A DNA stretch of 64,000 bases. Source: an uncultured Cloacibacillus sp. (lineage in GTDB: Bacteria; Synergistota; Synergistia; Synergistales; Synergistaceae). The position numbers were made by a program, and so were the translations under genes. The stretch is from NCBI GenBank assembly GCA_937934445.1, contig CALGZM010000066.1, positions 152,335-216,334 on the forward strand. The letters are read 5' to 3'. The notes under the pieces are model-generated. The model saw nothing but the letters and a program-made list of their open reading frames with translations, made no database searches and was not told the DNA's origin. This document shows, in pieces, positions 15,497-16,744 of this stretch (position 1 is its first letter; each line of letters begins with the position of its first letter).

Positions 15497-15514
15497 ACGT
15501 AATTTTGCTTACGT
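15497..15514. repeat. Left 18-bp inverted repeat (ACGTAATTTTGCTTACGT) of the candidate invertible switch.
   Basis: Perfect reverse complement of 15813-15830. Confidence 0.85.
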
Positions 15515-15526
15515 TGTACGTTGATT

Positions 15527-15555
15527 ATTTTATTTTATCGCTTATCTAAATTCAA
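15527..15555 (-). promoter_or_regulatory. Sigma70-like promoter inside the invertible segment, reading leftward toward tpsB. -35 TTGAAT, 17-bp spacer, -10 TAAAAT.
   Basis: On the minus strand: TTGAAT (15555-15550), 17 nt, TAAAAT (15532-15527). The predicted TSS is about 10 bp from the left IR and would read out toward tpsBA. Confidence 0.5.
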
Positions 15556-15812
15556 TCCATGAAAGGATAAAATTTATTAGATTGTATGTAATAGATTTAA
15601 ATGTTAGCGTGAATTGGCACGGGCGTATTGCGCTGGTGCTGGCAACGGCATGGCATTTTTTGTACAGAACGCGGCGTAGATCTACGCTTTAGTACAATAC
15701 CGCTTTCTGCACACGGAGTGTCTGCGGGGCGGACACCTGTCTTTCCTGAGTGCACAGAACTTGAGAAGGCATTGGGGTTATTGGAGAGCGCCACGTTAGT
15801 TTTATTCTCGTC

Positions 15813-15830
15813 ACGTAAGCAAAATTACGT
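15813..15830. repeat. Right 18-bp inverted repeat (ACGTAAGCAAAATTACGT) of the candidate invertible switch.
   Basis: Perfect inverted repeat of 15497-15514, bounding a roughly 298-bp AT-rich segment. Confidence 0.85.
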
Positions 15831-15883
15831 GTCGTTGAAACGGTTATGATATGTTATATTTGTAGAAATTAGTTGGAGCAGAT

Positions 15884-15900
15884 ACGTAAGCAAAATTACA
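15884..15900. repeat. Third copy (16/18 identical) of the right inverted repeat. It overlaps the stop codon of the recombinase gene.
   Basis: ACGTAAGCAAAATTACA in the same orientation as 15813-15830. It covers the recombinase's last codon and TAA stop (15896-15898). Confidence 0.75.
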
Positions 15901-16744
15901 TTACAAGCTTCATCTTGTTGAGCTGGCGCAGGTGCTCGCAGCCCGCGGTCGCTATGTAGATGCGCGTCGTCTCTACACTGCTGTGGCCGAGAAGGTCTGC
16001 TAGCTTTGACAGGTCGCGTTCAAGCGCGTAGTAGGTGCGTGCGAAAAGGTGGCGCAGGTTGTGCGGGAATACTTTGCTGGCAGCGACTCCGGCGCGCGCG
16101 CCGAGTTTTTTCATCTCGTACCATACGCGGTGGCGGCTGACCGGCTTGCCTGCTTTGTTGGTGAATATTGGGCCGCACGCCTTGTGCCGCTCCGCCGCAT
16201 AGCGCAGAAGCTTGCGCACGAGCGCCGCGGGGAAGAGTATGCGGCGGCATTTGCCCTTGAGCGTCAGCTCCGCGCGTCCCGCGCGGACGGCTTCCACCGT
16301 TACGAACGCGAGCTCTGATACGCGGATGCCGGTCGAGCATATCGTCTCCATCATGAGCGTGAGGCGGTGGCGTTTTTCTTTCCGCGCCGTCTCTACGAGC
16401 TTCGCGTATTCGGCGCGGCCCAGCTCGCGCCGTTCGTCGCGGAAAGGCGAGCGCTGGCGGCGGAGGAATTTCGCGCGCCACTCCGGACGGCCCGCGAAGG
16501 TCAGCAGGCCGTTGACCGAGGCGAGCATGACGTTGACGGATGAGCTCGCGTATTTGCCCGCGACGAGGCGCTCTTTCCAGCTCAGTACCGCGCCTTTGTC
16601 GATAATTTTGTCCGGCGGCAGAAATTCGTAAAAGCGCAGCAGGTCGCGGCGGTATTTGTCGATGGTGGCAGCGCCGCGCTCGTCTTCCGTAAGGCGCCGA
16701 AGGTAGTTTTCGATAAGCTGCGGTGTTAGTGTCATGTGGATCAT
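15896..16744 (-). CDS. Tyrosine site-specific recombinase (XerC/XerD/phage-integrase family), candidate invertase.
   Basis: N-terminal SAM-like core-binding domain. C-terminal catalytic domain with R...HxLRH...Y (HNLRHLFARTY...RIYI). Immediately adjacent to the inverted repeats. Confidence 0.88.
   Translation of the reverse strand: MIHMTLTPQLIENYLRRLTEDERGAATIDKYRRDLLRFYEFLPPDKIIDKGAVLSWKERLVAGKYASSSVNVMLASVNGLLTFAGRPEWRAKFLRRQRSPFRDERRELGRAEYAKLVETARKEKRHRLTLMMETICSTGIRVSELAFVTVEAVRAGRAELTLKGKCRRILFPAALVRKLLRYAAERHKACGPIFTNKAGKPVSRHRVWYEMKKLGARAGVAASKVFPHNLRHLFARTYYALERDLSKLADLLGHSSVETTRIYIATAGCEHLRQLNKMKLVM

Follow-up and report, generated by a model that had tools for sequence, protein, structure and literature searches.

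A three-site invertible segment beside a tyrosine recombinase gene is a likely phase-variation switch of a two-partner secretion operon in Cloacibacillus

A 64,000-nucleotide stretch from an uncultured Cloacibacillus sp. (contig CALGZM010000066.1, positions 152,335 to 216,334; hereafter, the window) carries a tyrosine recombinase gene, a short noncoding switch region, and the two-partner secretion (TPS) operon tpsB-tpsA (tpsBA), in this order. The switch region holds a 298-bp segment bounded by inverted repeats, and we have little doubt that this segment inverts in nature: both of its orientations occur in natural populations. The recombination sites, the gene arrangement, and the intact catalytic residues of the window's recombinase are likewise evident from the sequences. 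The best explanation for this organization, and in our judgment the probable one, is a phase-variation switch in which recombinase-driven inversion of a promoter segment turns tpsBA on and off. As regards the components of this switch, the adjacent recombinase very probably performs the inversion, as suggested by its linkage to the sites and its coinheritance with them in three Synergistota lineages and in relatives from Clostridia, and the orientation of the segment is likely to govern tpsBA transcription through a predicted promoter.

The features of the locus are listed in Table 1, in which the copies of the recombination site at 15884, 15813, and 15497 are named A, B, and C, and the pieces between A and B and between B and C are named x and y, respectively. 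A preliminary description of the window, made from its letters alone, had proposed a perfect 18-bp inverted-repeat pair around a segment of ~298 bp. Sequence reading and a repeat search reproduced arms, lengths, and spacing exactly: the arms at 15497-15514 (ACGTAATTTTGCTTACGT) and 15813-15830 (ACGTAAGCAAAATTACGT) are 18 nt each, 100% complementary, and 298 nt apart. The two-site picture was nevertheless incomplete, as it missed a third copy at 15884-15901 (ACGTAAGCAAAATTACAT), which has one mismatch (17/18), repeats the 15813 arm in direct orientation, and takes in the recombinase stop codon. Allowing up to three mismatches, the 18-bp site occurs three times in the window against an expectation of 0.03, and none of 100 shuffled sequences reached this number. 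With three recombination sites instead of two, the switch has more than two possible states. Site B lies 71 bp from site A, whose outer arm, ATGTAA, provides the final Met codon and the stop of the recombinase gene (…GTA ATG TAA TTTTGC TTACGT). Comparison of related loci revealed a 6-6-6 architecture of the site, with two 6-bp inverted arms flanking an asymmetric 6-bp center (AYRTAA-TTYYGC-TTAYRT); binding arms around a crossover spacer are the general layout of tyrosine-recombinase core sites such as loxP, FRT, and dif. Both x (53 bp) and y (298 bp) are noncoding and poorly conserved, and tpsBA is the single downstream operon. The segment had also been described as AT rich, which applies to the promoter-proximal ~110 nt of y (35 to 37% GC) but not to the remainder (about 53% GC). 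An exact scan of metagenomes for the 18-mer returned seven contigs, five of which had a single match in unrelated sequence, dissimilar to the window, and were taken for chance occurrences. No RNA families were found in an Rfam scan of 15000-17000 (E ≤ 1).

Table 1. Features of the recombinase-switch-tpsBA locus, in window positions
Feature	Coordinates	Strand	Description
tpsA	4221-13613	-	3130-aa secreted exoprotein; N-terminal TPS domain, GLUG motifs, MBG_2 domain
tpsB	13644-15314	-	Outer-membrane transporter; POTRA_2 46.6 bits, ShlB barrel 92.6 bits; GTG start at 15314 from homology and ribosome-binding site
Fixed leader	15315-15496	-	182 nt from site C to the tpsB start; about three tandem 36- to 38-nt units at 15330-15443
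Site C	15497-15514		tpsB-proximal inverted repeat; plus strand ACGTAA-TTTTGC-TTACGT; conserved in all related loci
Segment y	15515-15812		Invertible, 298 bp; orientation in the window aims the promoter-like element at tpsB
Promoter-like element	15527-15555	-	TTGAAT-17 nt-TAAAAT inside y; 12 nt from C, aimed through C at tpsB
Site B	15813-15830		Second copy, inverted relative to C
Segment x	15831-15883		53-bp spacer between B and A; movable in the sister lineage (0 to 2 copies)
Site A	15884-15901		17/18 copy; direct repeat of B, inverted relative to C; at the stop codon in every related locus
Tyrosine recombinase gene	15896-16735	-	279 aa from ATG at 16735; open reading frame reaches 16744; transcribed towards the switch
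Terminator-like hairpin	16809-16840	-	Strong; 13-bp stem and T run; after the upstream His_Phos (phosphatase) gene

Inversion was observed in the window's own species, defined here as contigs with a recombinase 100% identical to that of the window. Contig L060 (sample ERZ1311791) runs from the recombinase gene through A, x, and B into TGTACGTTGATTATTTTATTTTATCGC…, i.e., the C-adjacent end of the window's y in reverse complement. This junction is the product expected after recombination between B and C, which shows that 15515-15812 does invert in this species. The forward junction, in which the promoter end of y adjoins C and tpsB, is found on contig L025 of the same sample, so that both orientations were present in one sample. 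Furthermore, four Logan contigs break at the inner edges of the sites: L002, L061, and L062, which stem from different runs, end at B, and L026 starts at C. These breaks match the branching of a de Bruijn graph if y has two orientations and serve as supporting evidence; they could also arise if strains that differ in the sequence of y were mixed.

The order recombinase-switch-tpsB-tpsA is kept in three lineages, namely, the window species, a sister Cloacibacillus lineage (recombinase 89% identical), and a Caccocola lineage (85%), with the recombinase gene strictly linked to tpsBA in all of them. Every fetched locus was classed by the positions of the sites and the orientation of y. Among 28 loci of the sister lineage, the promoter end of y faces tpsB in 14 and is inverted in 14; for example, the y segments of L010 and L007 agree at 294 of 297 positions once one of them is reverse complemented. 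The 275-bp segment of the Caccocola lineage is forward in six loci and inverted in two (n = 8), at 100% identity. Inversion breakpoints always coincide with the sites. The central spacer is TTTTGC in the window and in the sister lineage, and TTCCGC in both partner sites of Caccocola; this paired change indicates that the crossover region is kept identical between partner sites, which is a requirement of tyrosine recombinases for strand exchange. Site number varies from two (Caccocola, L050, and L052) through three (the window) up to four (L012, L040, and L041), and at least five arrangements were seen: A-y-B'-x'-C, A-y'-B'-x'-C, A-x-B-y-C, A-x-B-y-B'-x'-C, and A-y-B'-x'-B'-x'-C. Such variety implies that all sites are used and that the small x unit is gained and lost. 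Specifically, the unit made of a site plus x, 40 nt long in the sister lineage, occurs in 0 to 2 copies on either side of y (L012:1349-1446, L040:3335-3747, and L041:3062-3474), a variation that fits unequal or intermolecular recombination between sites.

These comparisons leave very little room for a static inverted repeat (a chance occurrence, a structural hairpin, or a mobile-element end) whose opposite orientations would be assembly artifacts. Short perfect repeats can indeed mislead assemblers, and the OFF junction of the window's species is covered only about threefold. However, the 18-bp repeat is shorter than the assembly k-mers (31 to 141), inverted copies come from many independent samples and assemblers, including long-read assemblies, at 99 to 100% identity, their breakpoints fall at site edges without exception, and the spacer covaries in both arms. 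An assembly artifact was rejected on these grounds; an integron and the att sites of an integrative element were likewise considered and rejected.

The preliminary description had placed a recombinase gene of the XerC/D family at 15896-16744. An open reading frame (ORF) with these limits exists on the minus strand, adjoins the switch, and encodes a Phage_integrase domain (81 bits) together with an N-terminal SAM-like domain (Phage_int_SAM_1). The downstream start at 16735 is the probable one, as favored by gene callers and a ribosome-binding site; an exact look-up of the 282-aa ORF product gave no match, and the 279-aa form was found, because public gene calls use the latter start. The catalytic set R-K-H-R-H-Y is intact, with all six residues aligning with E. 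coli XerD R148, K172, H244, R247, H270, and Y279. Xer families are the best named matches of the protein and XerD is its nearest solved structure, so that the family assignment holds for an Xer-like fold, but the scores remain far below the equivalog cutoffs of XerD (110.6 versus 329.6 bits), XerC (109.9 versus 335), and XerA (121 versus 220), as well as below those of the NCBIfam tyrosine-type DNA invertase (FimB/E) models (NF007370, 24 versus 221 bits; NF007371, 20.8 versus 222). The closest recombinases in public data belong to uncultured Cloacibacillus sp. and to Candidatus Caccocola faecipullorum, both members of the Synergistaceae within Synergistota, and a scan of genome contigs with the recombinase as the query returned a single locus, in Caccocola. 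No second tyrosine recombinase is encoded within the window. The strong terminator-like hairpin at 16840-16809 indicates that the recombinase gene is a separate transcription unit.

The resemblance to XerD, together with the ranking of the named matches (XerA, 121 bits; XerD, 111; XerC, 110), is what a housekeeping XerC/XerD-type enzyme would show, and the repeats would then form a dif-like dimer resolution site devoid of any regulatory role. We consider this extremely improbable. Besides falling far short of cutoffs of 220 to 335 bits, the recombinase gene abuts three 18-bp (6-6-6) sites in mixed orientation, in contrast to the single unlinked 28-bp dif site (11-6-11), the segment between these sites is inverted in nature, and the gene is tied to tpsBA in three lineages. 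Dimer resolution by XerC/XerD at dif is thus largely refuted by the scores, by the number, size, and orientation of the sites, by the observed inversion, and by the linkage to tpsBA.

We now turn to the predicted promoter. The element TTGAAT-17-TAAAAT, previously assigned to 15555-15527 on the minus strand, was also reported by a promoter scanner, with 9 of 12 consensus matches, and in the fixed leader the same scanner detected nothing promoter-like aimed at tpsB. When y was aligned within each lineage group, conservation proved to be confined to the tpsB-facing, promoter-like end. The window, L028 (recombinase 94% identical), and L017 have TTGAWT…TAGRAT/TAAAAT and the preceding ~85 nt in common, and at the same end of y, TATTGCGC-N-ATTTATATTACAATACC is common to the sister and Caccocola lineages, which gives TTGCGC-17-TACAAT. 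Two human gut loci with tpsB 81 to 83% identical (L017:5964-7201 and L018:1-288) carry an insertion sequence (IS)-type transposase gene (rve and HTH) inside the switch. The IS has replaced y except for its last ~85 nt and site C, no recombinase lies within 7 kb, and the switch of these loci appears to be locked ON. Retention of only this end of y along with site C points to it as the functional part. The window orientation had been called ON; given that the sole conserved part of y, its promoter-like end, faces tpsB, this is a reasonable assignment.

It is conceivable that inversion is real but acts mainly by determining whether terminators interrupt read-through from the recombinase gene, or by antisense tuning of the recombinase, with tpsBA driven from elsewhere. 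The recombinase gene does read straight into the switch, with its stop codon inside site A; y contains weak terminator-like hairpins (15636-15651 and 15718-15736) on the strand opposite the promoter, which would face tpsB only once inverted; and a Subdoligranulum relative of the switch, described below, contains within its segment a strong hairpin whose arms are 31 nt long. Nonetheless, we judge this alternative unlikely. The search for orientation-specific terminators in y of the window yielded only weak hairpins that are not conserved between lineages, and they are therefore not counted in favor of the promoter-inversion mechanism either. It is the promoter-like end of y that is conserved, and the fixed leader offers no promoter-like site of its own facing tpsB.

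In the promoter-inversion mechanism that we propose, the 279-aa recombinase most likely recombines the 18-bp core sites, so that C × B recombination would flip the 298-bp y and C × A recombination would flip x, B, and y together. In the ON state, the y promoter beside C would read through C and the 182-nt leader into tpsB-tpsA. In the OFF state, the inverted promoter would drive antisense transcription into the recombinase gene from its 3′ end, leaving tpsBA without a promoter. Within one clone, the giant TpsA surface protein would then be made by some cells and not by others. The additional states of the three-site switch appear to be ON/OFF variants with a passenger spacer. We further speculate that there may be a feedback on the recombinase: as its coding sequence ends within site A, the 3′ untranslated part of its transcript would vary with the switch state, as would the convergent transcription met by the gene. 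A comparable orientational control is established for fimE in E. coli.

Several observations weigh against this interpretation. All five copies of the window's species that span the switch are ON, in the arrangement A-x-B-y-C (the window, L021/L056, L022/L057, L023/L058, and L059), and its inverted state is represented by one contig junction at about 3× coverage plus the pattern of contig ends. The y sequences of the window species and of the 89% sister lineage have no similarity beyond chance, alike as their lengths are (298 versus 297 nt), so that conservation of the promoter across groups is positional and at the level of motifs, not of alignment. The promoter itself is predicted from an imperfect consensus match, and promoters of Synergistota are poorly characterized. 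The adjacent recombinase is assigned as the acting enzyme on its linkage only, and another recombinase is conceivable. Finally, transcripts of the recombinase gene enter the switch with no clear terminator between, and some read-through expression of tpsBA could occur in either orientation.

The operon under this putative control is a genuine TPS (type Vb) pair, in which TpsA scores 68.2 bits for the TPS domain and 54.8 bits for adhes_NPXG. The exact 556-aa TpsB product is found in seven public contigs. Among strains with identical TpsB, the called TpsA lengths are 1899, 2580, 3130, and 3239 aa (the window and L021-L024), and L012 has 3374 aa; this spread suggests expansion and contraction of repeats in the passenger region, or assembly collapse. 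A 194-aa ORF directly downstream of tpsA (3500-4084, minus strand) has no Pfam match; it might encode, for example, an accessory or immunity-like protein. In several assemblies of the sister Cloacibacillus lineage (L007:6247-6600, also L003, L006, L009, L012, and L038), a GAG-to-TAG nonsense mutation splits tpsB into 98-aa and 468-aa ORFs, and tpsB is intact in L005 and L039. Such a mutation offers another, irreversible way of losing the adhesin system. The leader between site C and tpsB contains about 2.7 to 3 copies of its 36- to 38-nt unit, each with a small hairpin (CGGUxC-N5-GUACCG) in the tpsB-sense RNA. A similar unit is present as a single copy in L028 and L017 and is missing from the sister lineage. 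The tandem units may serve as an RNA element of the leader or as a binding site for a protein; as a whole, the tpsB leader RNA is not significantly structured (z = -1.37).

In its logic, the switch resembles fimS of E. coli (FimB/FimE) and mrp of Proteus mirabilis (MrpI), in which the promoter of a neighboring surface-adhesin operon lies on a segment of ~300 bp between inverted repeats, and the analogy with fimS drawn in the preliminary description was right to that extent. As with fimE, the recombinase gene adjoins the switch and is transcribed towards it, although feedback on the recombinase is established for fim and proposed here. The two systems differ in the enzyme, which in the window is a single Xer-like recombinase with an N-terminal SAM-like domain, neither of the FimB/E type nor a true XerC/D, instead of two recombinases; in the sites, with three 18-bp core sites, one of them over the recombinase stop codon, versus 9-bp inverted repeats; and in the target, a TPS operon and not chaperone-usher fimbriae. 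The IR-flanked (inverted repeat-flanked) regulatory segment is also shared with the invertons of gut anaerobes, i.e., Mpi and Tsr of Bacteroides, the RecV switches of Clostridioides difficile (cwpV, flgB, and cmrRST), and the PhaseFinder and DeepInverton catalogues, as are a gut commensal host, a surface structure as the target, and detection from mixed orientation in sequence data. RecV and Mpi, however, act in trans on many dispersed switches, whereas the recombinase described here is linked in cis to only three sites in 64 kb. One adjacent tyrosine recombinase serving more than two sites in both orientations recalls the R64 shufflon (Rci) and the Mycoplasma vpma, vsp, and vsa systems (Xer1 and HvsR); those systems swap coding segments or move one promoter among genes, unlike the noncoding pieces and the single target operon of the window. 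As for the target, HMW1 and HMW2 of Haemophilus influenzae are TPS adhesins that vary in phase by slipped-strand changes in simple repeats. The switch has in common with them a TpsA-type adhesin for which reversible, stochastic expression (ON/OFF or, in such adhesins, also graded) is proposed, and differs in that DNA inversion takes the place of slipped-strand changes.

Relatives of the recombinase extend beyond Synergistota. A search of 1.84 billion cluster representatives returned 530 recombinase clusters at E ≤ 1e-30, and the best matches outside Synergistota, 48 to 52% identical and of ~280 aa, come from gut Clostridia (Subdoligranulum variabile, Anaerotruncus, and Neglectibacter/Oscillospiraceae), in which they are annotated only as "tyrosine-type recombinase/integrase." Two such relatives, 48 to 49% identical, were examined at their loci: P0288 from Subdoligranulum (L063-L068, about 3846-4148) and P0341 from Oscillospiraceae (L069-L076, about 3853-4100). 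In Subdoligranulum, a 20-nt inverted repeat (AACAGAA-TCATGG-TTCTGTT) begins at the recombinase stop codon and brackets 263 nt, the switch precedes genes for a 274-aa protein and a VWA/DUF7604/DUF7601 protein of >1200 aa, and the segment is inverted in one locus (L068). In Oscillospiraceae, the inverted repeat ACAACATAA-TTTTTG-TTATGTTGT contains the recombinase stop codon and brackets about 200 nt; the element includes ParA and ParB, genes for GGDEF, PilZ, sortase, and collagen-binding proteins lie downstream of the switch, and all eight loci are in one orientation. The core of this site, ACATAA-TTTTTG-TTATGT, almost equals the Cloacibacillus site. The Clostridia switches thus share with that of the window an inverted repeat at or containing the recombinase stop, followed by a bracketed segment (200 to 263 nt in Clostridia) and then a surface-protein operon; they differ in phylum and target operons and in that only two sites were seen. 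On these sequence grounds, the window switch is one of a wider group of cis-linked invertase modules that has no name as yet. More tentatively, and with less than even confidence, we suggest that the recombinase and its stop-codon-containing core site may form a portable phase-variation module spanning Synergistota and gut Clostridia, which would have come to control different large surface-protein operons on repeated occasions. In Cloacibacillus, this module would have grown into a multisite, multistate device whose site copy number changes by recombination and whose OFF promoter runs antisense into the recombinase gene, providing an orientation-dependent feedback (memory).

The preliminary description had held that the locus would be a new phase-variation system in a Synergistota-like anaerobe and had regarded the inversion-driven expression of a TPS adhesin as not commonly described. 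In the literature searched, we found no report of an inversion-controlled TPS system or filamentous hemagglutinin, no inverton at tpsBA or in Cloacibacillus/Synergistota, and no phase variation of surface structures in Synergistota. The inversions reported in Cloacibacillus evryensis concern only a restriction-modification locus and a prophage (Sekulovic et al. 2018; PMC5903667). To the extent of these searches, the switch is new for the phylum and for the secretion system, but the kind of system is already known, and the Clostridia relatives have it before other surface-protein operons. Invertons preceding surface structures are common in gut bacteria, and the window switch would not surprise a specialist.

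The switch has practical bearings on sequence data, as it breaks metagenome assemblies at this locus, where many contigs end at the sites, and existing metagenomes permit a direct determination of its ON/OFF ratios. The switches found in Clostridia suggest that a large family of generically annotated recombinases, amounting to the 530 clusters mentioned above, may consist largely of dedicated invertases. Synergistota are common but little-studied anaerobes of the gut and the oral cavity, some of which are linked to disease. If the proposed switch operates as described, cells of a single clone of these bacteria would come to differ in their surface, as in Bacteroides and E. coli, with consequences for colonization and for evasion of the immune system and of phages.

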